NCBI GenBank assembly: GCA_021796335.1
Contig: JAJYHZ010000001.1
Coordinates: 219,454-283,453, forward strand
Direction of reading: 5' to 3'
Source: a bacterium
GTDB lineage: Bacteria; Patescibacteriota; Minisyncoccia; UBA6257; UBA9933
Length of the DNA: 64,000 bases
Part shown: piece after piece, positions 8,417 through 63,135 of the stretch
Layout of the letters: every line of letters begins with the position of its first letter
Numbering within the stretch: the stretch's first letter is position 1
Made by a program: the position numbers and the translations under genes
Notes under the pieces: generated by a model
What the model saw: only the letters and a program-made list of their open reading frames with translations
Told to the model about the DNA's origin: nothing
Database searches by the model: none

Positions 8417-11152
8417 TTATGGATTCGTAATCGTGCAGGTGTTGCCGCAGGAGCCTGCCGGCGTCTTACCGGTCATGGTTTCGTAATGTGCGTCGATCTG
8501 CGCCTGCGAAAGCAAGTGATCATACACTGCCACCTTACCCACCGCGCCCTTGAACCATGTGTCCATCGCCATCGTACCGATGGTAAGAGGTGATGAACCC
8601 GCTTTCGGCGCAATATCGTACTGGCTCATACAGCCAGTCGGCGCGTGCGCAGCAAAATCTTGCTTAACGCCATCCACCCAGATGTTAATGGTGCCTGGAT
8701 ATGCCGAAGAACAAGCCGGGGGTGTTTGTGTCGTGTCATATTCCGCAACGACATAAACCCACATACCAGTCTTAAACAAGCCTGCGACCGGCTGCCAATC
8801 CGCCGCGCTGCCTAAACCCGCGGATGGATTAAAGACATAAGCGGAGAAGCGGTTCGGACGGTTTTCAGGGGTGACAGCGCTGTAAAGACGCGCCTCCCAC
8901 TCACAGCTTGGCGAGTAGTTCTCGCATTTTCCCATCCAATCAACATAGCCATCACCGCTTGCGTTCGGGAACTGAAGTGTGTCAAGCCGCACCCAACCTT
9001 CCCAGGTAAGCTGACCGGTAGTCGGGATGGAAAGCGCAGGATTAGACGGAACCGTAAGATACTCGCTTGAACCGTTAAAGTCGGCGGCGATATCGCCGTT
9101 AGGCATTGCTACCGTGCTTGGCGTACCGCCTTTGTAGGTGCCGTCATTACCGTGGCCAGAAAGATCTGTCTCGTGCCCCGACGAAGACGAATTCATCGAA
9201 AAATACATAACCGGATTATCGGCAAGTATGAGCGAGTCGTATGTCGAAGCCGGAACTGAAGCTGATACTGGGTCAAGAGTGGAAATCGGCGCCAAAGCGC
9301 TATTTACTGCAACCGATGAATTAGAAAAAACATAATTTTTGAACGAAGCATCCATAAAATCTGTTCTAACTCCCCCATAACCGGTGTTTGTCATCGGCGA
9401 TCCTCCTTGTGATCCGTTATCGGTTGTCTGAACCGCTAAAACCCAATTTCCAGTATTATTCTTGTCAATATAAACCTGGATAAGAACCGAACCATCCGGC
9501 TGGTTAGTTACAACCGAGCGAAGTCCGATCCATGTATTTAGCGGAATTAAATTGGGATTACTGTTCTGATTGTAATTTCCGGAATAAACCTTGTTTAAAG
9601 CAAGTGTGTAGTATGCGCCATTTTCTTTTTTCTTAATTACGGCCTGCCCGTCAACACGAATACCGGTATAATAAACATTATTCTGATCGACGTATCTATT
9701 AAAAAAGAAAATGCCATTTGACGCGTTCCTATTCGGACTCGAACTTAACCAATACTTAGACACATTAAAATACGCCTGTTGCGATTCATTTTGATTTGAT
9801 GATTTAGTTACCAAACGAAAGATATTTTGCGGATGATAACCGTTATCAGTATCCACCGGATTTGTACTGTTGTACAAAATTCTCCATGGATCATTACTCG
9901 GCAAGCTTCCCGTAATTGATTTTCCCACTCCATTATTTACATAAAAGTATGCGCCCGAACTTAACCACCAATCCGAATCAGCACTTGCACTCATGGAATC
10001 TGCTTCAGTAATTATTCGATTTGCATTGAGTCCATAATAATTAGAAGTGGAAGTAGAAATGTTTACAGTAGAAGAACTTGTCTGGATATTTGTCGTCGAC
10101 GTTGTTGGACTGTTTGATTGAATTGACGTATTGCTTAATGTCTCACTGCCAGCGTCTGCAAAAGCATTAATGTAATTGAGATCTGTTGCTGTAGATTGTT
10201 CTGTTCGAAACGCATAACCAAGACCAACTGTTTTTTCTGACGATCCTTGCGGAGTTACGTAAATATCATAACTATGGTTGGGAATATCGATTGCCAAGCG
10301 GAATGTGTAAGTATTCCCCGCAGTATAAGGAATTGCGGTTTGAGCTTGATAACTTGAGCCGTTTCTGGCATCAATGTTCCCGTTAGTATTGAATCTGACG
10401 ATTGCGGCAAGATCAGTAAATTTTGAAGCTAATTGAGAAGACAGTCCGATAACGCCGTCCATATTATTTCCGTTTGGTATTGCATCAAAAGTAGCAGTGA
10501 ATTTGCCATTTTGAGCAGTTATTGGATTTCCTTGCCAGACGGAATTTGTTGTTATTGAGTTGTTTGTATTTGTTGTTGTCGTCGACGTTGTTGGACTGTT
10601 TGATTGAATTGACGTATTGCTTAATGTCTCACTGCCAGCGTCTGCAAAAGCATTAATGTAATTGAGATCTGTTGCTGTAGATTGTTCTGTTCGAAACGCA
10701 TAACCAAGACCAACTGTTTTTTCTGACGATCCTTGCGGAGTTACGTAAATATCATAACTATGGTTGGGAATATCGATTGCCAAGCGGAATGTGTAAGTAT
10801 TCCCCGCAGTATAAGGAATTGCGGTTTGAGCTTGATAACTTGAGCCGTTTCTGGCATCAATGTTCCCGTTAGTATTGAATCTGACGATTGCGGCAAGATC
10901 AGTAAATTTTGAAGCTAATTGAGAAGACAGTCCGATAACGCCGTCCATATTATTTCCGTTTGGTATTGCATCAAAAGTAGCAGTGAATTTGCCATTTTGA
11001 GCAGTTATTGGATTTCCTTGCCAGACGGAATTTGTTGTTATTGTTAAGGTTGAATTAGTAACGGCATTAGCTGGTAAAATTATCAAGCTAAGCGCCATTA
11101 TTCCCAATAAAACACCTGAAAATGCTTTATTGAGATTAGAAGCATAATTCAT
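8417..11152 (-). CDS. secreted repeat protein with C-terminal LamG/concanavalin-A-like domain
   Basis: 911 aa with a signal peptide (MNYASNLNKAFSGVLLGIMALSLIILPANA). It has two identical ~162-aa modules and S/T-rich linkers. The C-terminal segment ...DLSGHGNDGTYKGG...FNGSSEYLTVP...WEGWVRL is typical of LamG-like jellyroll domains. The 3' third (8417-9400) is much GC-richer than the rest of the gene. Confidence 0.75.
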   Translation of the reverse strand: MNYASNLNKAFSGVLLGIMALSLIILPANAVTNSTLTITTNSVWQGNPITAQNGKFTATFDAIPNGNNMDGVIGLSSQLASKFTDLAAIVRFNTNGNIDARNGSSYQAQTAIPYTAGNTYTFRLAIDIPNHSYDIYVTPQGSSEKTVGLGYAFRTEQSTATDLNYINAFADAGSETLSNTSIQSNSPTTSTTTTNTNNSITTNSVWQGNPITAQNGKFTATFDAIPNGNNMDGVIGLSSQLASKFTDLAAIVRFNTNGNIDARNGSSYQAQTAIPYTAGNTYTFRLAIDIPNHSYDIYVTPQGSSEKTVGLGYAFRTEQSTATDLNYINAFADAGSETLSNTSIQSNSPTTSTTNIQTSSSTVNISTSTSNYYGLNANRIITEADSMSASADSDWWLSSGAYFYVNNGVGKSITGSLPSNDPWRILYNSTNPVDTDNGYHPQNIFRLVTKSSNQNESQQAYFNVSKYWLSSSPNRNASNGIFFFNRYVDQNNVYYTGIRVDGQAVIKKKENGAYYTLALNKVYSGNYNQNSNPNLIPLNTWIGLRSVVTNQPDGSVLIQVYIDKNNTGNWVLAVQTTDNGSQGGSPMTNTGYGGVRTDFMDASFKNYVFSNSSVAVNSALAPISTLDPVSASVPASTYDSLILADNPVMYFSMNSSSSGHETDLSGHGNDGTYKGGTPSTVAMPNGDIAADFNGSSEYLTVPSNPALSIPTTGQLTWEGWVRLDTLQFPNASGDGYVDWMGKCENYSPSCEWEARLYSAVTPENRPNRFSAYVFNPSAGLGSAADWQPVAGLFKTGMWVYVVAEYDTTQTPPACSSAYPGTINIWVDGVKQDFAAHAPTGCMSQYDIAPKAGSSPLTIGTMAMDTWFKGAVGKVAVYDHLLSQAQIDAHYETMTGKTPAGSCGNTCTITNP
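10085..11043. repeat. perfect tandem direct repeat, 2 x 486 bp, inside the CDS
   Basis: The sequence tgtcgtcgacgttgttggactgtttgattgaattgacgtattgcttaatg... recurs with an offset of exactly 486 bp (10091 vs 10577). About 470 bp of each copy are identical by eye. Confidence 0.85.
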
Positions 11153-12866: not shown

Positions 12867-15617
12867 TTATTGCGGATTTAGCATTTTTATTCCATAATCA
12901 TTAGTCACCACCTTTACTCCGGTCTGCGCGATATAATCCACTATTTGCTGGAATAATGCCGGCGTGATCGCGTAATTATCATTACTTGAATCAACCCTGT
13001 GAAATACTAAAACCAGCCATGTTTTGTCGGCGATTGACTGGTTAATCCAATTTTCGAACTGAGCCAAAGTGGTCGTATTTACCGCTTCCTGATATTTCAA
13101 TAAAAAATGGTCTGTTGATTTATCATTAAATCCGCTTTGCGTCGTTCTCGCTCCGACATATAATCCTGAATTTTTTAAAATCTGAACGGAAGTTGCGTCA
13201 TATTCTCCAAAAGGATAAGCAAATGTTGTTACATTTATGCCGATGCTATTTAGGGCATCCCACGAACCAGTAATTTCGTTCTGTTGGTCCGCATACGATA
13301 ATTGCGGCAAATGCGAATGATCAATCGTGTGCGAACCAATTTCCATTCCTTGGCTCTGCATATCCAAAACTTGAGCCGCATTTACGTAATCCGTATAATT
13401 GCCGTTAAGCGTATTGGTTATTATGTAAAATGTCCCTGATAAATTCGCTTGTTTTAAAATCGGAAAAGCTGTCTGATAAGCAGATATGTCACCATCATCG
13501 AAATTCAACGAAACCATCCCTTCAGAAAATTTATAAGGATTGTTTCCTAAATCTTTTAAATAATAATCATCTACTTTTAAAGATCCGACTCCGGTCAAAC
13601 TATGAAAAATAGTTATGGTTTTTGTGCCTGACGGAACTGCAAATTTTACATCAACCCCATTCCAGTTGTTTGCAAGAGTCGGACTCGCAATCGTTTGATA
13701 TTGATATGTCCCATCGGACATATGTAGCGCGACTTCAACCGTGTTTTGCGCAGTAGCCATATATTTATCCGAAAATTCATATAAATCTCCCGAAGTCGCA
13801 TTAACTTCAGAAAAATACCATTTCGCATCGCCGTTAGTATAGGAAGAAATATCAATTTCAGCCGCTTTACTATTAGTGCCGTCCACACCCGAAACCGGAT
13901 AAATAAAATTTGGAGTATTTACTCCCCATCCTCCCTCATACCAATTTTGCGGCAAACCTGTTGCGGAATCTGCAATTTCAAAGGATGGGTTCTTAATTAA
14001 ATTATCAGTTGATGTAGGAGGCGGAGGAGGAGGCGTCGGAGAAGTTATATCATTTAAATTAAATTCCCCGGTTGTTAATGAACCGACGCTCACCAAAGAG
14101 TGCAAAATTGTAACAGATTGCGAATTAGCAGGAGCAATAAAAGTGGACGTTGCAACTGCCGGGCTAATTGATGCCCCGGGCCTTGATAAAAGCAAATAAG
14201 AATATGTTCCGTCTGCTAAATGCACTCTGGCAATTATTGCCGTTGATGTGTCGGCGGTATAATAGTCGGAAAATTGGTATTGATGGCCGGGAATAACCGC
14301 AACATCCTTAAAATACCATCTGGAAGCTCCGCTTGTATATGAAGATATGCTTATTTTTGCCGCATCATCATTATTAAATCCCGCGACAGGATAAGTAAAT
14401 GTTGTTTGGTTAACGCCCCAATTGCCCTTATACCAGCCCTGTGGCAGACCGCTTGAAGCATCCATTAATGAAAGCGAGGGATTGAAAATTAAGTTATCAG
14501 TATTTGTTGCCGCAGGCGGCGAAGGCGGAGGAGAAGGCGTTGATGTTGATAAATAAAAATTGTCGGTTGTCAGCGAACCTGCGCTGTCCAAATATTGGTA
14601 AATATTAAGCGATTGCACGCCCGTCGGCACGACAAAAGTTGTTGTGCTGTTTTTCCATGCGTTGGATGCCGATTGAGGAAAATCAATATAAGAATAATAC
14701 CCGCCGGATAAAGTATAGCGTATTTCCAATGTAGTCGGAACTGTTGCAATGTAGGAATCGGAGAAAGTGTAAGTTTGTCCCGGTGTTGCCGGAATATCGC
14801 CGAAGGTCCACTTGGCATCTCCGCTTGTGTATGAAGTCATATCAACCTTGGCTGCATTCCCTCCGTCAATGCCCGGTACGGAATAAGTAAAGTTCGATTG
14901 GTTTATTCCCCATTTATCTTCTGTCCATCCCGCAGGCAAGCCGTCTGCGCCTACTGAATCAAAGGAACCATTATTAATTAAATTGCCGCCAGAAGACGAT
15001 GGAGGCGGAGAAATTATTGAATTTGCAATCAAGGAAAAATTATCTACTGTGAGCGATCCCACATTATCTAAATATTGATATATTGTAAATGACTTAACTC
15101 CGGCAGGAACCGTAAAAGTAGATGTGGAAGATTGCCACGTATCCGAAATGCTTGGAAATACAATGTCGTCATAAGTATAATTCCCATTAATTAAGAGATA
15201 TCTGACCTCAATCGTAGTCGGAACTGTTGCAATATAAGAATCGGAGAAAGTGTAAGTTTGTCCCGGTGTTGCCGGAATATCGCCGAAGGTCCACTTGGCA
15301 TCTCCGCTTGTGTATGAAGTCATATCAACCTTGGCTGCATTCCCTCCGTCAATGCCCGGTACGGGATAAGTAAAGTTCGATTGGTTTATTCCCCAGCTGT
15401 CTTGCGACCAACCTGCCGGCGCTCCATTTGCGCCCGTAATTTCAAAAGACCCATTGGGAATAAGATTCGATAAATCGCTTGCTTTTGTCTTAGAAATTAT
15501 CGGAAAATTCAAGGAGTTAAAAACAAAAATTATTGAAAAAAATACAACTAGGAACCTAAGAAAAACTCTTTTCATAGTATTGAAGAAAATAAAACGACCT
15601 TTTATTTTAAATTTCAA
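12867..15617 (-). CDS. secreted protein with 4 CBM-like modules and a C-terminal polysaccharide deacetylase (CE4/NodB) domain
   Basis: 916 aa with a signal anchor. It has four ~160-aa modules (NGSFE...GWxxDxWGxNQSxFTY...YTSGDAKW...Y), which are CBM4/9-like, joined by P/S linkers. The C-terminus has NFDDGDISAY...GSHTIDHSHL, which are CE4 deacetylase motifs. Confidence 0.75.
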   Translation of the reverse strand: MKFKIKGRFIFFNTMKRVFLRFLVVFFSIIFVFNSLNFPIISKTKASDLSNLIPNGSFEITGANGAPAGWSQDSWGINQSNFTYPVPGIDGGNAAKVDMTSYTSGDAKWTFGDIPATPGQTYTFSDSYIATVPTTIEVRYLLINGNYTYDDIVFPSISDTWQSSTSTFTVPAGVKSFTIYQYLDNVGSLTVDNFSLIANSIISPPPSSSGGNLINNGSFDSVGADGLPAGWTEDKWGINQSNFTYSVPGIDGGNAAKVDMTSYTSGDAKWTFGDIPATPGQTYTFSDSYIATVPTTLEIRYTLSGGYYSYIDFPQSASNAWKNSTTTFVVPTGVQSLNIYQYLDSAGSLTTDNFYLSTSTPSPPPSPPAATNTDNLIFNPSLSLMDASSGLPQGWYKGNWGVNQTTFTYPVAGFNNDDAAKISISSYTSGASRWYFKDVAVIPGHQYQFSDYYTADTSTAIIARVHLADGTYSYLLLSRPGASISPAVATSTFIAPANSQSVTILHSLVSVGSLTTGEFNLNDITSPTPPPPPPTSTDNLIKNPSFEIADSATGLPQNWYEGGWGVNTPNFIYPVSGVDGTNSKAAEIDISSYTNGDAKWYFSEVNATSGDLYEFSDKYMATAQNTVEVALHMSDGTYQYQTIASPTLANNWNGVDVKFAVPSGTKTITIFHSLTGVGSLKVDDYYLKDLGNNPYKFSEGMVSLNFDDGDISAYQTAFPILKQANLSGTFYIITNTLNGNYTDYVNAAQVLDMQSQGMEIGSHTIDHSHLPQLSYADQQNEITGSWDALNSIGINVTTFAYPFGEYDATSVQILKNSGLYVGARTTQSGFNDKSTDHFLLKYQEAVNTTTLAQFENWINQSIADKTWLVLVFHRVDSSNDNYAITPALFQQIVDYIAQTGVKVVTNDYGIKMLNPQ
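14731..15420. repeat. intragenic direct repeat, period 483 bp, ~200 bp near-identical
   Basis: gtagtcggaactgttgcaat...gcattccctccgtcaatgcccggtacgg occurs at 14731 and again at 15214. It corresponds to two of the four CBM-like modules. Confidence 0.75.
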
Positions 15618-35156: not shown

Positions 35157-37550
35157 TTATACAAGTTCCGTTTCTTTTTCCCTTACAAAGAAATGATAAA
35201 TGCCGAATCCTATTAGAAGTCCGAGTAAAAGATCGAACAGCCAGTTGCCGAACAGAGTCCCTATGGTTCCAAGTATTGAAGCAGAAATCGACGGGCCGCC
35301 CGCCACGATTATAGTCAGGTAAGAACTTACGGCTTGGAATCTTCCCCTGTAATCTGAATAGTTCATAATCGAAGTAAATACCAGTGAATCTCCCCCTTTG
35401 GCAGAATTATTTACTTTTACTTTCATATTGACGGCGCTTTGGCTGTTTGCCGCAACAGTTCCGATCATAAACTTAAGATTATTATTCTCTTGAGAAGAAG
35501 GCTGTATATCTGCGCTTTCATAAGAGACTTCGTTCGGCAAAGCAATTTGCAAAACCGCATTTGAAACCGCGCGATTACCGCTATTCTTATACACGACGGT
35601 ATAAGTCATTTCATCTCCCGCATTCGGATTATTATTATCAACCGAAGGAGTGAGTGAAACTGTTATGCCCGGAGCCGCAGGAGGAGTGTAAACCGCTATC
35701 CCCGTACTTGGAATTGCATACGCCGGAGATTTAGTAGTAAAAGTAAGCATACTTCCGTAACTCGTACCCGCCGCGTTTTGCGCAACCGCCCTGAAATAAT
35801 ATGTCGTGTTTGAATTTAATCCGGATAAAGCGAACGATAAAGGAACGGACAATGAATCATGCCCGGCCGGCTGAACAGTTGTTTCGAATCCAAAAGAAGG
35901 GGTCGCCCCCCATTCAAACCAGGCGTTTGTAAATAGATTATTAGTTATAACCGCTCCGTTTAATACGGTGGAGTTCTGGTATACAATGCTTGCCGGTAAA
36001 GTCGTCACCATCGGTGCTTGCCCGCCTGCGCTTATAACTGCTCCGCTGCCGGTCGTAAATGTCAGAATACTTCCGTAATTCGTGCCAAAAGAATTTTGTG
36101 CAACCGCTCGATAATAATAAACGGCATTAGGAGTAAGGTTGCTTATAAAAGTATTTACGTTCATAAACCCGTTAATCTGCTGGAATCCAGACGTATATCC
36201 CAAGTTTTGTGTCGGTCCGTATTCAAACCACATACTTGCAACTGATCCGTTTGAATTCACGTCTCCATTTAAGGTTGCGGAATTCGAGGTAATATTAGTT
36301 GCCGCATCAGTATTGACGGTCGGAGCAGAAGAGATAAATCCCGTGCCGAATTGAGAGGTATTAAACGACACTATGCTTCCGTAAGTCGTGCCAAAAGAAT
36401 TTTGAGCGACTATGCGAAAATAATATGTAGTATTTGTGTTTAATGAGGAGAGGAAACTGGCGATATTAACCGCAAAATTTCCGCTTCCCGCATCCTGTGA
36501 TGCCGTTGTGAATCCCAAAGATCCGGTCGGTCCGTATTCAAACCAAACATTGGTTTCCGAATTGTTCGAATTAACAGTTCCGTTCAAAACCGCCGAATTT
36601 TGCGTAATATTAGTGGCCAAATTAGTGGTCACGATAGGAGCCACTCCGTTTATTGCGCCAGTTTGAGTTGTAAACGAAATCACATTCCCATAAGTTGTCC
36701 CAAAGGAATTTTGAGCAACTGCCCGGAAATAATAAGTTTGTCCAGAATTAAGTCCGCTCAAAAATGAAGTTATATTGAAAGCCGAATTTCCGCTGCCAAT
36801 ATTTTGGAACCCAATAGTTGATCCCAAAGAAGGGCTTGTTCCATATTCAAACCAAACGGTGGTATTTGATCCGTTTGGATTAACGCTGCCGTTTAAACTT
36901 GCGGAATTTTGCGAAATATTTGTTACAAATTGATTTAAGATAGCCGGAGCTTGGTTTTGCGCGGACTGCGACTGGCTGCTTAATTGGGCCCTGAAAACAA
37001 TATAGCCCTGTGCGCTCCATCCCGGCGCGATATCACCTATATTCAGGCCGGAAAAAGAAACTATTTCCGAACCGTTTTGGCCGTTTAATAAACCGGTTGA
37101 ATTACTCGAATCATGATTAGCGAACCATTTTACCGTTCCGGGAAGAAAAGCCAGGGTTTGAGAATTTCCCGAACTGATATTTAATGAAACATTCCCATTC
37201 GCCGAATTCGCGTTAGAAGAAAAAATTGTCCCGTTTATTGTTTGAGAAGTAAAATTTCCCGTTGGTAAATTTACGCTCGCATGCGTCTGTGAAGCCGTAA
37301 CATCCGAAGTGTTGTGGTAATAAACCAAAAAACTGATTACGTCTCCGGGATTTGCGGAAACAGAAGTTGACCAGCAGCTAGTGCATCCCGGATGCTGCGT
37401 ATAATTGGAAATCTGCAATGTCGGATAATCTTTGGGGTCAGTATTAAATGTCGCTGTTGCCGCTTGCGCGCTCAATAACGGCAAAAATATCGCCATTGTA
37501 AAAATTCCGACAAAACCTGCTTTTAAAATTATTGTTAACTTTTTTTTCAT
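35157..37550 (-). CDS. cell-surface repeat protein (4 Fn3/PKD-like modules + DUF11-like domain + C-terminal TM anchor)
   Basis: 797 aa with a signal peptide. It has four ~95-aa repeats (NITxNSAxLNGxVNxN..xWFEYG...YYFRAVAQNSFGTxYG). The DUF11-like segment is TYTVVYKNSGN. The C-terminal segment WLFDLLLGLLIGFGIYHFF is a TM helix. Confidence 0.7.
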   Translation of the reverse strand: MKKKLTIILKAGFVGIFTMAIFLPLLSAQAATATFNTDPKDYPTLQISNYTQHPGCTSCWSTSVSANPGDVISFLVYYHNTSDVTASQTHASVNLPTGNFTSQTINGTIFSSNANSANGNVSLNISSGNSQTLAFLPGTVKWFANHDSSNSTGLLNGQNGSEIVSFSGLNIGDIAPGWSAQGYIVFRAQLSSQSQSAQNQAPAILNQFVTNISQNSASLNGSVNPNGSNTTVWFEYGTSPSLGSTIGFQNIGSGNSAFNITSFLSGLNSGQTYYFRAVAQNSFGTTYGNVISFTTQTGAINGVAPIVTTNLATNITQNSAVLNGTVNSNNSETNVWFEYGPTGSLGFTTASQDAGSGNFAVNIASFLSSLNTNTTYYFRIVAQNSFGTTYGSIVSFNTSQFGTGFISSAPTVNTDAATNITSNSATLNGDVNSNGSVASMWFEYGPTQNLGYTSGFQQINGFMNVNTFISNLTPNAVYYYRAVAQNSFGTNYGSILTFTTGSGAVISAGGQAPMVTTLPASIVYQNSTVLNGAVITNNLFTNAWFEWGATPSFGFETTVQPAGHDSLSVPLSFALSGLNSNTTYYFRAVAQNAAGTSYGSMLTFTTKSPAYAIPSTGIAVYTPPAAPGITVSLTPSVDNNNPNAGDEMTYTVVYKNSGNRAVSNAVLQIALPNEVSYESADIQPSSQENNNLKFMIGTVAANSQSAVNMKVKVNNSAKGGDSLVFTSIMNYSDYRGRFQAVSSYLTIIVAGGPSISASILGTIGTLFGNWLFDLLLGLLIGFGIYHFFVREKETELV

Positions 37551-57820: not shown

Positions 57821-59572
57821 TTATGAACTTTTCTCCTGCTCCATTTCTAATAATTGTTCCGGATTTGTCGTTATTGTTTTGTCTTCAAAATAAGACGCCA
57901 CTATTTTGAGCGCAACGTGCTTCAAACCCACCAAAAACAATCCTTCGCCGACATCGGCCTGGCTCAACAGTCCTTTCTCGATTTCGCTCAAACTGAAAGT
58001 TTTTTCCAAAACGCCGATAGCAGACGGAGCCTGCTTTAATAATAACTGCAAAGATGAATTTGTTATTATCGGCTGGCCGTACTGCGAATTTAAAAAGTCT
58101 TCCACGTTCTGAGTAATCGTCGTAAGCCCCAAATAGTATTTTCTGCATCGCTTTGCCAAAGAAAATAAAAATGACGCGCTGTCCGGATACTTCATCATCC
58201 ACCACGCTTCATCGATTATCAAAATTCTTTTTTTTAGTTCCGATCTGATCAAATTCCACACAAAATTCAAAACGATATATACCGCAATCGGCCTTAACTC
58301 TTCCTCTAAATCCCTGATCGAAAAAACAACCAACCTGTTTTTTATATCAACGTTCGTCGGCTTATTCGCGAATCCGGCATAAGTCCCCTTTGTAAATTTA
58401 TATAATCGGGATGCCAAACTTTGACCGCCTTCGATATTTTCCAAAACAGTCTGTAAATCTTCGAGCAGTGGCGGCTCTATTTTTGAAAAATCTTCCACAT
58501 CGGCGGTAATCCCGCGCGAAGCATAAGTTTCCGTAATGGCTCGGTCCAAAAGCGCATCTTCTTCCGGCGTAATCTGCCCTACCATCAGCTTTAATAAACC
58601 GGCCAGGTTTAAAATATGAGATTTGAATACATCGGCCGGATCTTCGCCCTTCGGAACAATTGGAATATCCAAAGGATTAATAGAAGTTTTTGAAGTTAAA
58701 GAAATTTTCAAAACGCTTCCCCCAACCGCCTCCGCAAGCCTTTGGTATTCGTTTTCAGGATCAATAACCATAATGTCTATTCCCATCATCAATGAACGCA
58801 GGATCTCCAATTTTGTCGCATAAGATTTCCCCGCGCCGGCTTTCGCAAAAACCACCTGGTTCGCATTTTCCAAAGAAAACCTGTCAAAAATAACCAGCGA
58901 ATTATTAAACCGGTTAATCCCGTACAAAACTCCCGTGTCCGAAGTCAGATCGGTTGAAACAAAAGGAAACAAGGATGAAGCCGGATTTGTGTTTAAGGGC
59001 GTATAAATAGCCAACTTATCCTGGCCTGTCGGCATTGTTGATATGAATCCTTCGATATGCTGAAAAATCGCCGGTTTCGCATAGACCATCTGGCTATCCA
59101 GAATCGAAATAACCTGTTCTTCCAGCTTATTCAATTCATCCACGGTCTTCGCATAAATAGTTACATAGACCCCTACATTGAAAAGTTTTTCCTGAGCCTG
59201 CTGCAATTGGTCGCGCAAATTTTCTATATCCTGATAAGCGGTTTCCAGAACAGGATCGCGGACCAATCCTTTATCGTCTCTTTCAGAAAGCTGGGACTCG
59301 ATTTGAGTAACCTTCTTTCTCAGCTGCTTCAAAGCGGTGGTGGTATCAACCGGATGGACGAAAACGGAAACATCCAAAAGATTCGGAAGATTTATTATTG
59401 AATCAAACCATCCCGTGGACAAATATCGCGGATAAGTGAAAACAAAAAGAGTTTTAGAAACTATATCCCCCAACCTTAAATAATTCGGATTCACTTCCAA
59501 GGCCGCGGGAGCAATCACATTTTTCACATCTTCCTCCTTCGAATTGAATGGTTGTGGAATTTCTATTTTCAT
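57821..59572 (-). CDS. VirB4-like T4SS ATPase (TrsE/TcpF/Orf16-type), core + ATPase domains
   Basis: Walker A AKAGAGKSYAT, Walker B/DEAW motif LIIDEAWWMM and YPRYLSTGWFDSIINLPNLLDVSVFVHPVD, typical of Gram-positive VirB4 homologues. 583 aa, which is short. Confidence 0.8.
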   Translation of the reverse strand: MKIEIPQPFNSKEEDVKNVIAPAALEVNPNYLRLGDIVSKTLFVFTYPRYLSTGWFDSIINLPNLLDVSVFVHPVDTTTALKQLRKKVTQIESQLSERDDKGLVRDPVLETAYQDIENLRDQLQQAQEKLFNVGVYVTIYAKTVDELNKLEEQVISILDSQMVYAKPAIFQHIEGFISTMPTGQDKLAIYTPLNTNPASSLFPFVSTDLTSDTGVLYGINRFNNSLVIFDRFSLENANQVVFAKAGAGKSYATKLEILRSLMMGIDIMVIDPENEYQRLAEAVGGSVLKISLTSKTSINPLDIPIVPKGEDPADVFKSHILNLAGLLKLMVGQITPEEDALLDRAITETYASRGITADVEDFSKIEPPLLEDLQTVLENIEGGQSLASRLYKFTKGTYAGFANKPTNVDIKNRLVVFSIRDLEEELRPIAVYIVLNFVWNLIRSELKKRILIIDEAWWMMKYPDSASFLFSLAKRCRKYYLGLTTITQNVEDFLNSQYGQPIITNSSLQLLLKQAPSAIGVLEKTFSLSEIEKGLLSQADVGEGLFLVGLKHVALKIVASYFEDKTITTNPEQLLEMEQEKSS

Positions 59573-59588
59573 TTAAATAATTTTCTTT

Positions 59589-59608
59589 AGGTTAATTAGA
59601 ATAATTAG
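59589..59608 (-). promoter_or_regulatory. CTAATTA iteron-like motif copy A (20-mer ctaattattctaattaacct)
   Basis: Lies 16 nt upstream of the VirB4-ATPase ATG. It is a near-identical 20-mer to copy B and consists of three 8-bp-spaced CTAATTA units. Confidence 0.4.
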
Positions 59609-59679
59609 TAATTAGTTTAAATTTTATTTATTATTTTAACTCGTTATCGCGTTAACCCGTTAATACCTAATCTATTGGT

Positions 59680-60333
59680 TTATTTATCTTGTCGTACTAT
59701 ATGCAATTCTTTCTTTTCCATCGGCTGCGGATTGTATAAATTGTAAAATAATTCTATCAATTCCTCGGTCATAAGCGCGACCGCCCGCAAACCGATTGCA
59801 GATAACCCGGCGACAACCTCATCAGTCCTTTGATCTAATTGGCTTATCTTTTCTTCCAGGGTTTGTGCATCCTCCGACGCGTTTTTTTTCTTCTTGCCAA
59901 AAAACGGAATTGCTTCCATAACTTTTTCGGTTCCCTCGGAGATATTTATCGCATCATATGGAACGACAACGAAAAAATTTTTGGACATAATTTCGTTTGA
60001 TTCAACGAAAGATTTCACAAATTCCACGTACTCGGAAATCTGATCTTTCAGCAAGTCGTTCTTTTCGTTCTCCTGCATCTCACTTAAATTATCCAAATAC
60101 CCTTTGATATTTAATTTCCTCGAGTGAATGACTATTTGTAATGAAAAATCGAGGGAATTCAAAAAATTTTGATAAGCTCCCAAAATCGCGTTCTGCTCGT
60201 CTTCGGATTTCAATTCGAAGTTAATTCCCGTTACCATCAAAACCCGCCGTAAAGAGCCGCTTTTTAAAATAACTGTCCCGTCGCGGATTTCTTCGATATC
60301 AACAAATTGTTGGGTTGATTGGGATTCTTTCAT
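59680..60333 (-). CDS. protein resembling the N-terminal (CagE/TrbE/VirB4 N-domain) part of VirB4
   Basis: 217 aa with no TM helix. DGTVILKSGSLRRVLMVTGINFELKSEDEQNAILGAYQNFLNSL matches the pattern of the VirB4 N-terminal domain as I recall it. It lies 107 bp upstream of the ATPase ORF on the same strand. Confidence 0.45.
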   Translation of the reverse strand: MKESQSTQQFVDIEEIRDGTVILKSGSLRRVLMVTGINFELKSEDEQNAILGAYQNFLNSLDFSLQIVIHSRKLNIKGYLDNLSEMQENEKNDLLKDQISEYVEFVKSFVESNEIMSKNFFVVVPYDAINISEGTEKVMEAIPFFGKKKKNASEDAQTLEEKISQLDQRTDEVVAGLSAIGLRAVALMTEELIELFYNLYNPQPMEKKELHIVRQDK

Positions 60334-60402
60334 AATAACTAATAGTAACTAGTCGTTGGTTTTTAGTTTTCGCAATAAACTTTTCAACATTTTCATAACT
60401 TC

Positions 60403-60711
60403 TTACAAGAATAATTTCAAACGAATGAATTCTTGTTTAGGTCTTAAGCCTAATTTCTTTGATAATAATAGCTGAGTTTCTGATTCTACGCCAGACCCAG
60501 AGGCAATAGAGATAACTTGATAGAACTCCTTTTTATGTCTTCGAGATAATCCTTCTGCGATATTTGAGGGTATTGATATGGCGCATCTCTTTATTTGGGA
60601 AGTTGTTCCATATAATTCATATTTTGGAAAAAACCTTGTTAGTTCATAAATTTCCAGAACTAATTCCATTGATTTATTCCAAACAATCAAATTTTTATAA
60701 GAGTTTTCCAT
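60403..60711 (-). CDS. four-helix-bundle protein (23S rRNA intervening-sequence protein / Avd-like family)
   Basis: 102 aa. LIVWNKSMELVLEIYELTRFFPKYELYGTTSQIKRCAISIPSNIAEGLSRRHKKEF..IASGSGVESETQLLLSKKLG is the canonical family pattern (VWQKA...P..E.YGL.SQ.RRAA.SI.SNIAEG...E...L). Confidence 0.7.
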   Translation of the reverse strand: MENSYKNLIVWNKSMELVLEIYELTRFFPKYELYGTTSQIKRCAISIPSNIAEGLSRRHKKEFYQVISIASGSGVESETQLLLSKKLGLRPKQEFIRLKLFL

Positions 60712-60757
60712 TTTTTTAAAAAATAATATCTAAAAACTAACGGCTAATACTAACCGA

Positions 60758-61270
60758 TTACCTGTAATCCACTCTCTTCGCCACTTCTTTTTCTCCGGTT
60801 AATTTTCTAAATACGCTGTATGAATCGGTTTGTTTTATCGGACCGGTTTTTTCCCTTCTCGGAATCGGATTTTTCGTCGTGGTTAAATCATTCCAAAGCT
60901 TTCCGATAGACGGCATGCCAAATGAGAAATCCTTCAAATTTTTCCTTTCTTCTAAAACTTTCTCATTGGGAATATCGATAACCGTGGTTTTCAATTCCCT
61001 TTGCCACAAATACATTCGCGGCTGCCAGAAAAAATTCAAAGCCGAAATTATTATTTTAATCAAAGGCTGTCCATTGTATCTGACAAAAGCCAAGGAAATT
61101 CCGATTACGGCTACGAAAGTCGTGAGTAATAACCAAATCCAGAACGGAAAAATAAAATAACCGATAAAACTGATTGCGCCCGCTCCCAATAAATAAAGAA
61201 GCTGCTTTAAAGTAAGCGGTCCGGCAATCTTATCCTCAACTTCAATAAATTGGGGTATTTGAAAGCGCAT
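60758..61270 (-). CDS. PrgI/TcpE-family (VirB3-like) T4SS membrane protein
   Basis: 170 aa. QIPQFIEVEDKIAGPLTLKQLLYLLGAGAI followed by two TM helices and RYNGQPL. This matches the Tn916 Orf17/PrgI pattern that normally sits directly upstream of the VirB4 homologue. Confidence 0.6.
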   Translation of the reverse strand: MRFQIPQFIEVEDKIAGPLTLKQLLYLLGAGAISFIGYFIFPFWIWLLLTTFVAVIGISLAFVRYNGQPLIKIIISALNFFWQPRMYLWQRELKTTVIDIPNEKVLEERKNLKDFSFGMPSIGKLWNDLTTTKNPIPRREKTGPIKQTDSYSVFRKLTGEKEVAKRVDYR

Positions 61271-61292
61271 ACAACAAAAATTAATCTAATTT

Positions 61293-61315
61293 CTAATTAG
61301 TCTAATTATTCTAAC
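61293..61315 (+). promoter_or_regulatory. CTAATTA iteron-like motif copy C (inverted orientation)
   Basis: ctaatttc taattagt ctaattat tctaac has four 8-bp-spaced units. It overlaps the stop of the upstream four-helix-bundle gene and lies ~35 bp upstream of the prgI-like start. Confidence 0.35.
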
Positions 61316-61659
61316 TTATTTTTAATTTTATTTCGAATTGAATTAAAAATTAAATTTAATTCCTTCGCTTCCTGCCATAATTTTCGAGCATCCTCTTTTA
61401 AGTCTGGAGATGTGACCACAGCCATTCTTAACCAATATTTTGTTTCTCGAGCTTCTTTTTTGCGAATCTCGATCTTATGTTGAAAATCCTTGCTTGATTC
61501 CGCATCGTCGGCTTCACAATAATTTGCGCCAATACTTGTTCCCGCTCTAACCAGCTGAATTATTATCGGCTTTATAATTGAATTTTGGAGAATTTTTTTA
61601 GAAAAATTTATAATTTCTTCACCAAATTTAGCGGTTCTTTCTTCCAAATCATATTTCAT
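61306..61659 (-). CDS. four-helix-bundle protein (23S rRNA IVS protein / Avd-like family), second divergent paralogue
   Basis: 117 aa. IIQLVRAGTSIGANYCEADDAESSKDFQHKIEIRKKEARETKYWLRM is a family hallmark (RSGTSIGANY.EA....S..DF..K..IA.KEA.ET.YWL). Confidence 0.7.
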   Translation of the reverse strand: MKYDLEERTAKFGEEIINFSKKILQNSIIKPIIIQLVRAGTSIGANYCEADDAESSKDFQHKIEIRKKEARETKYWLRMAVVTSPDLKEDARKLWQEAKELNLIFNSIRNKIKNKLE

Positions 61660-61674
61660 AATTGGAATTTACTT

Positions 61675-61694
61675 AGGTCAATTAGAATAATTAG
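61675..61694 (-). promoter_or_regulatory. CTAATTA iteron-like motif copy B (20-mer ctaattattctaattgacct)
   Basis: Lies 15 nt upstream of the four-helix-bundle gene ATG at 61659. It shares 19 of 20 nt with copy A at the same spacing from the ATG. Confidence 0.4.
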
Positions 61695-61947
61695 AGATTA
61701 GGTCAATTTTTACTATTCTATTTCCTTCAAATCTATTGATTTTCATTCTAACTCGTTAATAAGTAAATTAATGTAGCTATTTCCCTAATGTCCTCAAATC
61801 CACCATGTTTTCTTCCGCCGAATATCTTCTAATTTAATTTCTTCCGATAATTCGGAAAAATCTTTCCTTTTTTAAAACAATCTTGTCGTCAAAATTATTC
61901 TCATTATTAGTTGCATCACATATATCTGTTGTATATTGGTATTGTAT

Positions 61948-63135
61948 TTATTTCTCCAGCATCCTCAGATCCACGATATCTTCCTTCACAGGGATATCTT
62001 CCAGTTTTACTTCTTCCCGTGGCTCGGGCAGCTCCGCCGGTTTATTTAATGTAACGGTGTTATTTTCTTTTTCGACTTCCTTTTTAGGCAAAGGCTGATA
62101 AAAATTGACTGTTTTGGCCGGCTGTTCACCAATGATTTGTTTTTGAGGCAATACTGATTCCAGTTTATTTTCTCCGATAATATCCGGCAGTTCCGGCTTG
62201 TCAATTTTATTTAATTCCACGACCTTCGGCGCTGCCTGATAAAAATTAATACTGCTATTTTCTTTCGGCTTCAAAGGAAGATCTTCCAAAATTACAGGTT
62301 GCTCAAAATTGGCATTTTTTAATTCGGACTGTTCGGAAATTTTCACGCTTGGTTGGACGGCGGATTGCGGAGTCTGCGGCAGCGGATTATTGATTTGTTG
62401 CGCGATTTTTTCTTGCGCATTCATTTCAGCCGGCTGTCCGGAAGTTTGATTCAAAAAAGAATTTTTAAAATCGCTGTAATGCACGATTTTCATTTTCGGT
62501 TTTTCGGTCTCTCCGATTTCTGATGTTTTTGTTTTATTGAATAAACTTACCTCCGCTTCAACCGGTTTCTCGGGCATAGGAGGAATCTTCTCATCCCGCC
62601 TGAAAAGTCCGAAAATTCCGGAAAAAGAGGGCTTGGACTGCTTTATGGCGTTTACTTTTTTCTCTTCGTGAATAATAGCCGGCGCCTCTCCGATTTCATT
62701 CAAATTGACGGTCTTTGCGACTTCAGATGATGGAGCCGACGAAATTGCAATTTGCTCTGATTTCGAACCAAAATCAACCGGATTGTCGTTTACGGCAACC
62801 GATTCCTTATCTGAAACCGGACTGTATACTTCATTTAATTCATTTTGAATTGGAGAAAAAATTTTTCGATTGATTTCTTTTGCCAAAGATTCCGCAATTT
62901 CGTTTTTTACTCCCAAAGCAGCGATTTCTCTTTCCAGATCCGCGGCGCTTATAAAACCCAATATAATATAACCGCCGATTGAAGCAAGATCATATTTTTG
63001 ATCATCTGTTAAATGGAATGTATCGCCTAAATTCCATAATAAATTGGCGCTTTCTTCGGAAAATAAGGCTTCTTTTAAATTATCCGACAAAGTGTCATAT
63101 CTCCTGTCGATTTGTTCTTGCGGTATTTTTTTCAT
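61948..63135 (-). CDS. hypothetical protein, low-complexity P/E/K/Q-rich C-terminal half
   Basis: 395 aa with no TM helix. It is the first complete gene upstream of the T4SS-like block. Confidence 0.45.
   Translation of the reverse strand: MKKIPQEQIDRRYDTLSDNLKEALFSEESANLLWNLGDTFHLTDDQKYDLASIGGYIILGFISAADLEREIAALGVKNEIAESLAKEINRKIFSPIQNELNEVYSPVSDKESVAVNDNPVDFGSKSEQIAISSAPSSEVAKTVNLNEIGEAPAIIHEEKKVNAIKQSKPSFSGIFGLFRRDEKIPPMPEKPVEAEVSLFNKTKTSEIGETEKPKMKIVHYSDFKNSFLNQTSGQPAEMNAQEKIAQQINNPLPQTPQSAVQPSVKISEQSELKNANFEQPVILEDLPLKPKENSSINFYQAAPKVVELNKIDKPELPDIIGENKLESVLPQKQIIGEQPAKTVNFYQPLPKKEVEKENNTVTLNKPAELPEPREEVKLEDIPVKEDIVDLRMLEK

Follow-up and report, generated by a model that had tools for sequence, protein, structure and literature searches.

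The 64,000-nucleotide stretch of Patescibacteriota DNA analysed here (positions 219,454 to 283,453 of contig JAJYHZ010000001.1, assembly GCA_021796335.1; hereinafter the window) contains a run of minus-strand genes, spanning 57.8-63.1 kb, that includes components of a type IV secretion system (T4SS). In the order of transcription these are a 395-aa gene without a match to any family, a small open reading frame (ORF B), a gene of the prgI family, a second small open reading frame (ORF A), and two genes, virB4N and virB4C, for the N-terminal and C-terminal parts of VirB4. The relatives of this PrgI are of the Wolfebacteria/Paceibacterota type, and the source contig has a near-identical copy in GCA_021836325.1. 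An earlier note on the window had assigned both small ORFs to the four-helix-bundle family first found inside intervening sequences (IVS) of 23S rRNA, and had read them as remnants of a diversity-generating retroelement (DGR), as selfish insertions into intergenic spacers, or as dedicated partners of the T4SS. We consider it likely that both are the cargo of self-contained, IVS-like cassettes of about 430 nt, which entered the spacers of the operon independently, which the T4SS can do without, and which do not belong to any DGR.

The two small ORFs lie on the minus strand on either side of the prgI-like gene, as the earlier note had described, and the assignment of that gene to the PrgI family holds (Table 1). 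Membership of both ORFs in the four-helix-bundle family is likewise confirmed, as each exceeds the curated cut-offs of PF05635 (23S_rRNA_IVP; 33.8 bits) and TIGR02436 (four helix bundle protein; 24 bits). The respective scores are 112 bits (E 1.9e-32) and 104 bits (E 4e-30) for ORF A, and 52.2 bits (E 8e-14) and 72 bits (E 4e-20) for ORF B, whose match spans positions 3-109 of the 109 in the profile. The segment R-x3-S-x3-N-x2-E of the GxxRxxxSxxxNxxE motif (PMC3936711) is legible in both translations, as R42-CAI-S46-IPS-N50-IA-E53 in ORF A and R-AGT-S-IGA-N-YC-E in ORF B, and its columns are invariant in our family alignment (A1). At the sequence level ORF A retrieves XCC0516 (PDB: 2GSC), a four-helix-bundle protein solved as a pentamer (E 4e-21), and ORF B retrieves BT_0352 (PDB: 2RLD; E 1.2e-14 over residues 6-114). 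The AlphaFold model of ORF A (predicted local distance difference test score, pLDDT, 90) has four helices and superposes on 2GSC with a template modelling (TM) score of 0.93 and a root mean square deviation of 0.7 Å, at 42% identity. These two direct relatives are deposited as structures of the 'S23 ribosomal protein family' without an assigned function, in entries that cover the proteins only. The description of the pair as divergent also stands: ORF A and ORF B are just 23% identical, and their cassettes belong to different subtypes, A-type and B-type, that were acquired independently. Rfam and tRNA scans of the window gave no match, rRNA included.

Table 1. Features of the two cassettes and of the host operon in the window
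Feature	Coordinates	Strand	Basis or remark
Entire cassette B of 436 nt, made up of 5' arm, ORF B and 3' arm	61276..61711	-	Inverted repeat and fold
ORF B, intact 117-aa four-helix-bundle protein (23S_rRNA_IVP / TIGR02436)	61306..61659	-	Profiles; 2RLD match
5' arm of cassette B, CTAAT-containing units, abutting the ATG upstream	61660..61711	-	Inverted repeat; motif
3' arm of cassette B, ATTAG-containing units	61276..61327	-	Overlaps last 7 codons and stop of ORF B; ends 5 nt before prgI start
Cassette A, whole element, 424 nt	60334..60757	-	Occupies entire prgI/virB4N spacer
ORF A, 102-aa four-helix-bundle protein, C-terminally truncated	60403..60711	-	PF05635, TIGR02436, AlphaFold model
In-frame rest of the ancestral ORF A beyond the premature TAA (17 codons and TAG)	60349..60402	-	Family-consensus match
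Cassette A 5' arm (period-7 units with TTAG)	60730..60756	-	Inverted-repeat pairing
3' arm of cassette A	60336..60366	-	Overlaps last codons of the ancestral ORF; stops just before virB4N ATG
Solo B-type 5'-arm copy in the virB4N/virB4C spacer	59582..59626	-	82% direct copy of 61668-61712; motif match
prgI-family gene, host operon, outside the cassettes	60758..61270	-	PF12666, E 3.6e-10; kept in 80/80 related loci
virB4 N-terminal gene (virB4N), host operon	59680-60333	-	Free-standing; NF041427 TrsD/TraD, E 3.9e-11
virB4 C-terminal gene (virB4C), VirB4 ATPase body, host operon	57821-59572	-	NF045971 CD1110-type VirB4, E 2.4e-113
virB4 pair together	57821..60333	-	

The two elements share a compact anatomy, in which the 5' arm starts right behind the stop codon of the upstream gene and ends just before the ATG of the cassette, and the 3' arm overlaps the final codons of the ORF and extends to the start of the next gene. 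The arms of both are inverted arrays of short tandem repeats with units of 7-9 nt. Those of cassette B, 52 nt each and 77% complementary, enclose ORF B, and in the minimum-free-energy fold of the sense RNA (61265-61720, 456 nt) a terminal stem closes off the whole ORF (free energy, dG, -99.2 kcal/mol; z-score -4.4; equalled by 0 of 100 shuffles). They show a self-match of 0.45-0.46 at period 9, their units being spaced 7, 9 and 9 nt apart. Only 3 places in the window carry the motif CTAAT-N2-5-CTAAT-N2-5-CTAA, against 0.01 expected, and its inverted copy lies at 61286-61314, within the 3' arm of cassette B. The solo arm listed in Table 1 stands in the virB4N/virB4C spacer (59573-59679), and its similarity to the cassette extends about 100 nt upstream of the start codons of both ORF B and virB4C, such that the virB4C ATG has the same position relative to the solo arm as the ORF B ATG has relative to its own. 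Because this spacer does not fold into a hairpin (z -0.19), the element is a solo arm rather than an ORF-less stem, and it is probably the remnant of a lost cassette.

Homologues of ORF B form at least 7,998 clusters, the top ones being 72-81% identical to it and distributed across Patescibacteria. Comparison with seven B-type genes from other contexts gave pN values of 0.14-0.17 and pS values of 0.63-0.89, corresponding to a dN/dS of about 0.1 or less with saturated synonymous sites, and on these substitution patterns the ORF B family is under purifying selection. Across genomes, the B-type 5' arm has (CTAATTnnn)x3-4 ahead of AAATCCCAAT and the ATG; in the 3' arm, ATTGGGATTTGATTAG precedes (AATTAGnnn)n. 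Given that this arm sequence is still recognisable in cassettes of other genomes despite the saturation of synonymous sites, something would seem to read it, and the only gene of the cassette is that of the four-helix-bundle protein. ORF-less inverted pairs and extra B-type CTAAT-array arms were also observed in three loci (L188, 499-609; L089, 2234-2360; L180, 1454-1491 and 3362-3537), which hold a full B-type or A-type cassette as well.

Cassette A, in comparison, is decaying: its stem is weaker, and its ORF has recently acquired a nonsense mutation. ORF A is cut to 102 aa by an in-frame TAA at 60403-60405, against 117-125 aa in typical homologues. Read-through past this codon gives EVMKMLKSLLRKLKTND*, which matches the C-terminal consensus of the family, LLEEVMKMLNSLL, in the region of the C-terminal helix; because of this match, the ancestral ORF A can be reconstructed as 60349-60711, or about 120 aa, and the TAA is taken to be a recent nonsense mutation. 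The core of its inverted repeat has 17-nt arms, 60730-60746 and 60350-60366, that pair at 88%, and the duplex formed by the ends of the spacer has a dG of -39.7 kcal/mol (z -3.8). The cognate flank duplex (-30.3 kcal/mol) ranks 3 of 40 when set against non-cognate pairings, and the period-7 self-match of the 5' flank is 0.48. The terminal stem of cassette A is seen only in the centroid structure and is weaker than that of cassette B.

An alignment of PrgI homologues yielded 80 species-representative related prgI-virB4 loci, in which the distribution of the cassettes could be followed. The earlier note had advised checking whether such loci in relatives lack the two genes, and this is indeed so: prgI and virB4 are kept in 80/80, and there are 23 cassette profile matches in 17 loci, the remaining 63 (79%) being without any. 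The cassettes occupy three spacers, namely those between the upstream gene and prgI, between prgI and virB4N, and between virB4N and virB4C, whose lengths are bimodal, mostly 18-170 nt when unfilled versus 414-590 nt when filled. All 23 matches fall in these three spacers, whereas the 305 further spacers that the same loci contain hold none (Fisher p=4e-10); the three prgI/virB4 spacers are a genuine cassette hot spot. The cargo is not uniform. Long spacers that have no four-helix-bundle gene hold instead an unrelated ORF of the GxxExxY/PDDEXK_3 type (TIGR04256, E 1e-17 to 1e-30); 7 of the 23 matches are GxxExxY ORFs and the rest are four-helix-bundle ORFs of both A-like and B-like subtypes in the same three spacers. 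GxxExxY (TIGR04256, PF13366) cassettes with inverted arms of the same sort were recorded at L007 5627-6040, L008 1438-1833, L012 4083-4511 and 5243-5689, L026 5738-6124, L033 4513-4923 and L010 1865-2101, the last decayed to 79 aa.

Several stages in the life of a cassette are visible in these loci: intact ORFs, a nonsense mutation (as in ORF A), frameshift, truncation, ORF-less hairpins and the solo arm. A four-helix-bundle copy in L037 lies on the opposite strand and is split into two matches by a frameshift, and truncated cassette ORFs are present in L010 (79 aa) and L017. ORF-less hairpins made of the same arms were found in spacers of 98-158 nt in L052, L033, L018, L010, L064 and L066, with z-scores from -2.6 to -5.4. 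In L033 the virB4N/virB4C spacer holds a hairpin in which a 9-nt loop joins copies, about 90% identical, of the 5' and 3' arms that belong to the GxxExxY cassette in the prgI/virB4N spacer of that genome. Such hairpins may be remnants of cassettes or landing sites for ORFs. Sporadic occurrence, the filling of an otherwise short spacer, inverted arms and the decay of one copy together bear out the idea of selfish insertion into spacers that the earlier note had put forward. The note had added that insertion would fit both the odd spacing and the split VirB4; the link to the split does not hold for this locus. The split is the normal state, with separate N and C genes in about 70 of the 80 loci and a single ORF in 9, and the N-terminal piece in the window matches the free-standing TrsD/TraD family; as this majority state involves a known family of free N-terminal proteins, cassette insertion as the cause of the split was set aside, although a cassette may have been what first divided the gene. 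The loci with single-ORF VirB4 are more distant relatives (L046, L048, L056, L057, L059, L066, L068, L074 and L078). A cassette or hairpin site at the split junction was noted in L006, L007, L008, L012, L026, L049, L143, L033, L052, L010 and L064. In some Wolfebacteria the T4SS spacers also carry a GC-rich palindromic element (GTCATTCC[C/T]GCG...CGGGAATGAC), which is a separate repeat family, at L017 5312-5399 and 4550-4663, L050 4502-4662 and L013 5302-5403, with a dG of -51.5 and a z-score of -10.6 in L017.

Complementarity between the two arms of a cassette extends well beyond the window. Among 21 T4SS-locus cassettes, cognate 5' and 3' flanks pair with -32.1 kcal/mol versus -18.8 kcal/mol for non-cognate flanks (p=1.5e-8), and among 72 independent metagenomic cassettes carrying A-type homologues the corresponding values are -41.0 and -24.4 kcal/mol (p=1.4e-25), with 58% of them in the top 5% of their own non-cognate distribution. 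In this metagenomic A-type set each arm is an array of tandem heptamers, inverted between the two ends, and the unit varies from cassette to cassette: (AGGGACT)n is opposed to (CCCTAAT)n, (AGGTAAC)n to (CCTGTTA)n and (CAGTGAA)n to (TTCACTG)n, to give three examples. Flanks show a period-7 self-match of 0.41-0.44, which compares with 0.32 for the other intergenic DNA in these loci (p=5e-17) and with 0.26 for the interiors of the ORFs. There are typically 3-6 repeat units per arm (median 4-4.6, range 3-14); the idea of one unit for each subunit of a pentamer was dropped, there being no sharp peak at 5.

The same cassettes are encountered in a wide range of unrelated operons. A-type relatives are located between co-directional genes for transketolase and pfkB, for an M23 peptidase or Rpf-like protein and ksgA, for polysaccharide epimerases, for cytochrome b and cytochrome bd, and for sufC and sufB; others adjoin trpD, sdhA and SpoIIE genes, and 6 of 80 metagenomic A-type relatives again adjoin prgI or virB4. 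Both neighbours are co-oriented with the cassette in 36 of the 55 cases that have two neighbours (p=3e-10). One B-type relative adjoins a T4SS-pilin cluster, and others lie between genes for giant surface proteins, upstream of rpoB or within a type IV pilus locus. Inverted arms also surround 2 of 3 examined genes of cyanobacterial plasmids: in Nostoc punctiforme (NPUN_RS35280, NC_010632.1), (TCAGGAG)n faces (CTCCTGA)n with a dG of -81, and in Anabaena sp. 90 (ANA_RS23230, NC_019429.1), where the gene lies between cas6 and cas4, (ACAGGTG)n faces (TGTCACC)n with a dG of -95. In these cyanobacteria the short tandemly repeated repetitive (STRR) heptamers, tandem units in the intergenic spacers of heterocystous species, were first described. 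The cassette of the Anabaena plasmid pANA02 (L192, NC_019429.1, 1489-1967) has its 3' array, (TGTCACC)x4, inside the annotated 5' end of cas4, and the annotated cas4 start is therefore probably too far upstream. Altogether 28 plasmid records with an A-type gene were noted, mostly cyanobacterial (11 from Nostoc and 4 from Calothrix, plus Trichormus, Anabaena and others), and several of them are conjugative plasmids with a T4SS of the MPF_T type. A PADLOC search gave no defence-system match except for a marginal Cas4-like match of one GxxExxY protein, which is to be expected because GxxExxY has the PD-(D/E)XK fold. Scattered 23S_rRNA_IVP ORFs have been reported inside cas operons (PMC3936711).

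The closest counterpart of this anatomy is the IVS of 23S rRNA, as known from Coxiella burnetii and Leptospira. The Coxiella element measures 428-444 nt (424-436 nt for the cassettes of the window), the inverted repeats at its ends pair into a stem of 28 bp, and it carries a decaying ORF of the S23p (four-helix-bundle) family (PMC4990558), S23p being the same as 23S_rRNA_IVP. Just upstream of the S23p ATG there are three tandem GACAGAT heptamers and one degenerate copy, and RNase III cuts the element at the first repeat (PMC4990558). Besides length, the likeness lies in the same cargo family, complementary termini that form a long ORF-enclosing stem, tandem heptamers directly upstream of the start codon, and decay of the ORF together with ORF-less versions. 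Apart from the location, the differences are that GxxExxY serves as a second cargo in the equivalent cassettes of relatives, and that the B-type family is under strong purifying selection, unlike the Coxiella ORF. By analogy with the IVS of Coxiella, Leptospira and Salmonella, the arms would pair in the polycistronic transcript to give a long stem that loops out the ORF; this stem would then be a substrate of RNase III, and the insertion could thereby be excised from between the flanking cistrons or insulated from them. We propose that cassettes are tolerated in both operons and rRNA because of such processing. We infer RNase III processing, co-transcription, the mode of movement and the role of the protein, for which the leading guess is that it reads the repeat arms of its own cassette; with respect to mobility, it is the distribution of the cassettes that suggests it.

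Other known elements share part of these features. Geobacter metallireducens has 53 pairs of inverted tandem octa- or heptanucleotide repeats in operon spacers, and IS110-family elements insert at a fixed distance from such pairs (PMC2700814); by this precedent, paired inverted tandem repeats can be DNA targets. The Geobacter and STRR repeats are likewise inverted pairs of tandem 7-8-nt units in operon spacers, and have been described as repeats or regulator-binding sites, with no link to an enclosed four-helix-bundle or GxxExxY ORF or to rRNA IVS found in the searchable literature. In the candidate phyla radiation (CPR), to which the same organisms belong, 23S_rRNA_IVP ORFs are known from a few 16S and 23S insertions, scattered over sites (PMC11270868). 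Most CPR rRNA insertions are group I introns or LAGLIDADG/GIY-YIG elements, whereas the four-helix-bundle cassettes of the window have no intron and no known endonuclease, and their target is the spacers of mRNA. Miniature inverted-repeat transposable elements and palindromes of the repetitive extragenic type are likewise short, non-autonomous, intergenic and bounded by inverted repeats, with ORF-less hairpins; unlike them, the cassettes have a conserved protein gene and, in the A-type, arm arrays that differ from copy to copy, with no cognate transposase identified. The B-type copies have inverted arms in common with one another, the A-type copies do not, and no transposase is seen.

Several observations weigh against the cassette interpretation in the form given above. 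In 72 stems, G:T mismatches number 79 versus 105 A:C mismatches (p=0.065); with G:T not in excess, this wobble comparison lends no support to selection on sense-RNA pairing as such, and the arms could act in DNA. The fold of cassette A as a whole element is no better than that of shuffles (z -0.05). The RNAalifold consensus of ten B-type cassettes lacked the terminal stem, which is attributable to varying repeat numbers that break the alignment, and covariation in the B-type arms cannot be scored because the arms are conserved in sequence. The element contains no recombinase, and the classic IVS sits in helix 25 or 45 of 23S rRNA whereas the cassettes of the window sit in protein-coding operon spacers. 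Finally, in view of the strong preference for T4SS spacers and the purifying selection on ORF B, the cassettes are not simply neutral junk, and some function at the level of the host or of the element is selected.

The origin of the two genes as remnants of a DGR, or as its distal Avd (accessory variability determinant) with the reverse transcriptase (RT) and the template and variable repeats (TR/VR) outside the window, receives almost no credence from us. What speaks for it is the membership of the superfamily itself, as the Avd of Bordetella phage BPP-1 has the same four-helix-bundle fold (TM scores of the ORF A model 0.75 to 4DWL chain D and 0.73 to 8UBE chain D), the solved relatives being pentamers; in addition, the PHROG profile 'Avd protein of DGR' matches ORF A (E 1e-5), PF22296 is precomputed on many ORF A homologues, and PF05635 is the commonest Pfam family beside DGR RTs (PMC10053308). 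The similarity to bAvd that the earlier note had anticipated is thus present in the fold of ORF A but is accompanied by just 6% identity to 4DWL (6-7% to Avd overall, Foldseek E 0.5-1.5), which leaves ORF A far nearer to the non-DGR protein XCC0516, and ORF B has no match to the Avd PHROG. The note's statement that the window has no RT holds on a motif scan (GxPxG...YxDD), which, crude as it is, found none in the 64 kb nor in 165 related loci (967 kb); Pfam detected no RT domain among 20 neighbouring genes, and there is none among the called neighbours. Seven families of direct repeats in the window include no adenine-biased pair of the kind the note had proposed to look for, the 36 mismatches of repeat D2 being spread evenly over the bases and D1 being 100% identical. 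Further, two different subtypes lie 0.6 kb apart, each with its own inverted arms, and their relatives are found in unrelated operons. A dedicated partnership with the T4SS, in which ORF A and ORF B would serve as structural proteins or chaperones, for example for PrgI/VirB3 or VirB4, is in our view very improbable: their shared orientation, tight spacing within the operon and positional enrichment agree with it, but 79% of orthologous loci do without a cassette, and only in 17 of 80 is one present, in any of three spacers, with varied subtypes and sometimes a nuclease-fold protein as substitute. ORF A is, besides, truncated, and close homologues are at home in sufCB, ksgA, rpoB and cas contexts. 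Somewhat less remote, though still improbable, is a role as host-beneficial regulatory modules of the T4SS operon, in which the stems, as sites of processing or insulation, would set how stable and how well translated the prgI, virB4N and virB4C messages are relative to one another, and the protein would be an RNA-binding autoregulator. The confinement of all 23 cassettes to the prgI/virB4 spacers, the recurrence of A-type relatives beside prgI or virB4 and of a B-type relative beside a T4SS-pilin cluster, and the purifying selection on the ORF B protein would suit such modules. They would not explain that 63 of 80 loci work without a cassette, that the cargo is interchangeable, that copies decay, one being inverted and frameshifted, or that the same cassettes occur in many unrelated operons; a promoter and terminator scan of 59500-62000 gave matches at or below the level of shuffles and is uninformative, adding no signal in favour.

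A possible, if rather unlikely, alternative is that the arms act in DNA, with the cassettes being non-autonomous transposable or homing units and the RNA stem a by-product. A recombinase acting in trans, or the cargo acting in cis, would recognise their inverted ends or the hairpin or cruciform that these form. The ORF would be inserted or copied into pre-existing hairpins with matching arms, which would supply homology for hairpin-targeted copying. The absence of a G:U over A:C bias in the stems is in line with this, as is the maintenance of B-type arms across genomes and contexts, in the manner of terminal inverted repeats, where synonymous sites are saturated. The L033 hairpin, with arms about 90% identical to those of the cassette in the neighbouring spacer and the ORF of the latter placed exactly in the loop, the precedent of IS110 insertion at a fixed distance from the Geobacter repeat pairs, and the PD-(D/E)XK nuclease fold of the GxxExxY cargo point the same way. 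Against it, there is no transposase or recombinase in or beside the cassettes, and the A-type arms differ fully in sequence and yet stay complementary, so that a constraint on pairing fits better than a shared protein-binding site. Furthermore, the sole member with this anatomy to have been characterised by experiment undergoes RNase III processing at the RNA level.

In the course of the repeat analysis, the long repeats of the giant secreted-protein genes were considered as VR/TR candidates and rejected, being tandem in-gene domain repeats with no adenine bias. The secreted-protein genes at 8417-11152 and 12867-15617 contain two repeat pairs with copies about 485 nt apart, one a 300-nt direct repeat with 100% identity (10090-10389 and 10576-10875) and the other a 264-nt repeat with 86% identity (14688-14951 and 15171-15434). 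The perfect identity of the 300-nt pair is unusual; a recent duplication, gene conversion or an effect of the assembly could be behind it. At 35733-36734, four copies of a 69-nt repeat (71-78% identical to the reference copy) are spaced about 310 nt apart in a 797-aa ORF (35157-37550), and look like a repeated domain in a secreted protein.

Returning to the view of the two ORFs as cargo of IVS-like cassettes, the protein family, the rRNA IVS and scattered sightings of such genes in operons are already known. Not found in the searchable literature were cassettes consisting of an ORF plus inverted tandem repeats in the spacers of mRNA operons with two interchangeable cargo families, nor their conserved arms, their stages of decay, or a Patescibacteria T4SS hot spot for them. 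The name 'GxxExxY' had no match there, and heptamer arms were not linked there to four-helix-bundle genes beyond the Coxiella IVS; absence from this literature is no proof of absence in either case. We also offer, tentatively and with more doubt than confidence, a broader proposal, namely that operon-borne four-helix-bundle and GxxExxY genes, the ORF-bearing IVS of 23S rRNA, STRR-type arrays and ORF-less hairpins, commonly handled as separate matters, constitute one widespread class of protein-plus-repeat cassettes. Under this proposal the small protein would recognise the tandem-repeat arms of its own cassette and thereby drive processing or spread, the arm sequence would be kept where synonymous sites are saturated because the protein recognises it, and the DGR protein Avd would be a relative that has been domesticated.

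These considerations touch on matters of some generality. Few uncharacterised small genes are as common in bacterial genomes as those for four-helix-bundle and GxxExxY proteins, and where rRNA intervening sequences come from and what they do has been a standing question since 1990. For annotators, the practical consequence is that an Avd-like gene without an RT is no evidence of a DGR. The model predicts RNase III processing sites within cassette-carrying operons, and cultured cases are offered by Nostoc punctiforme (NPUN_RS35280) and Anabaena sp. 90 (ANA_RS23230). If the reading of all these elements as a single class is true, the T4SS operon of the CPR would offer a natural hot spot for their study.

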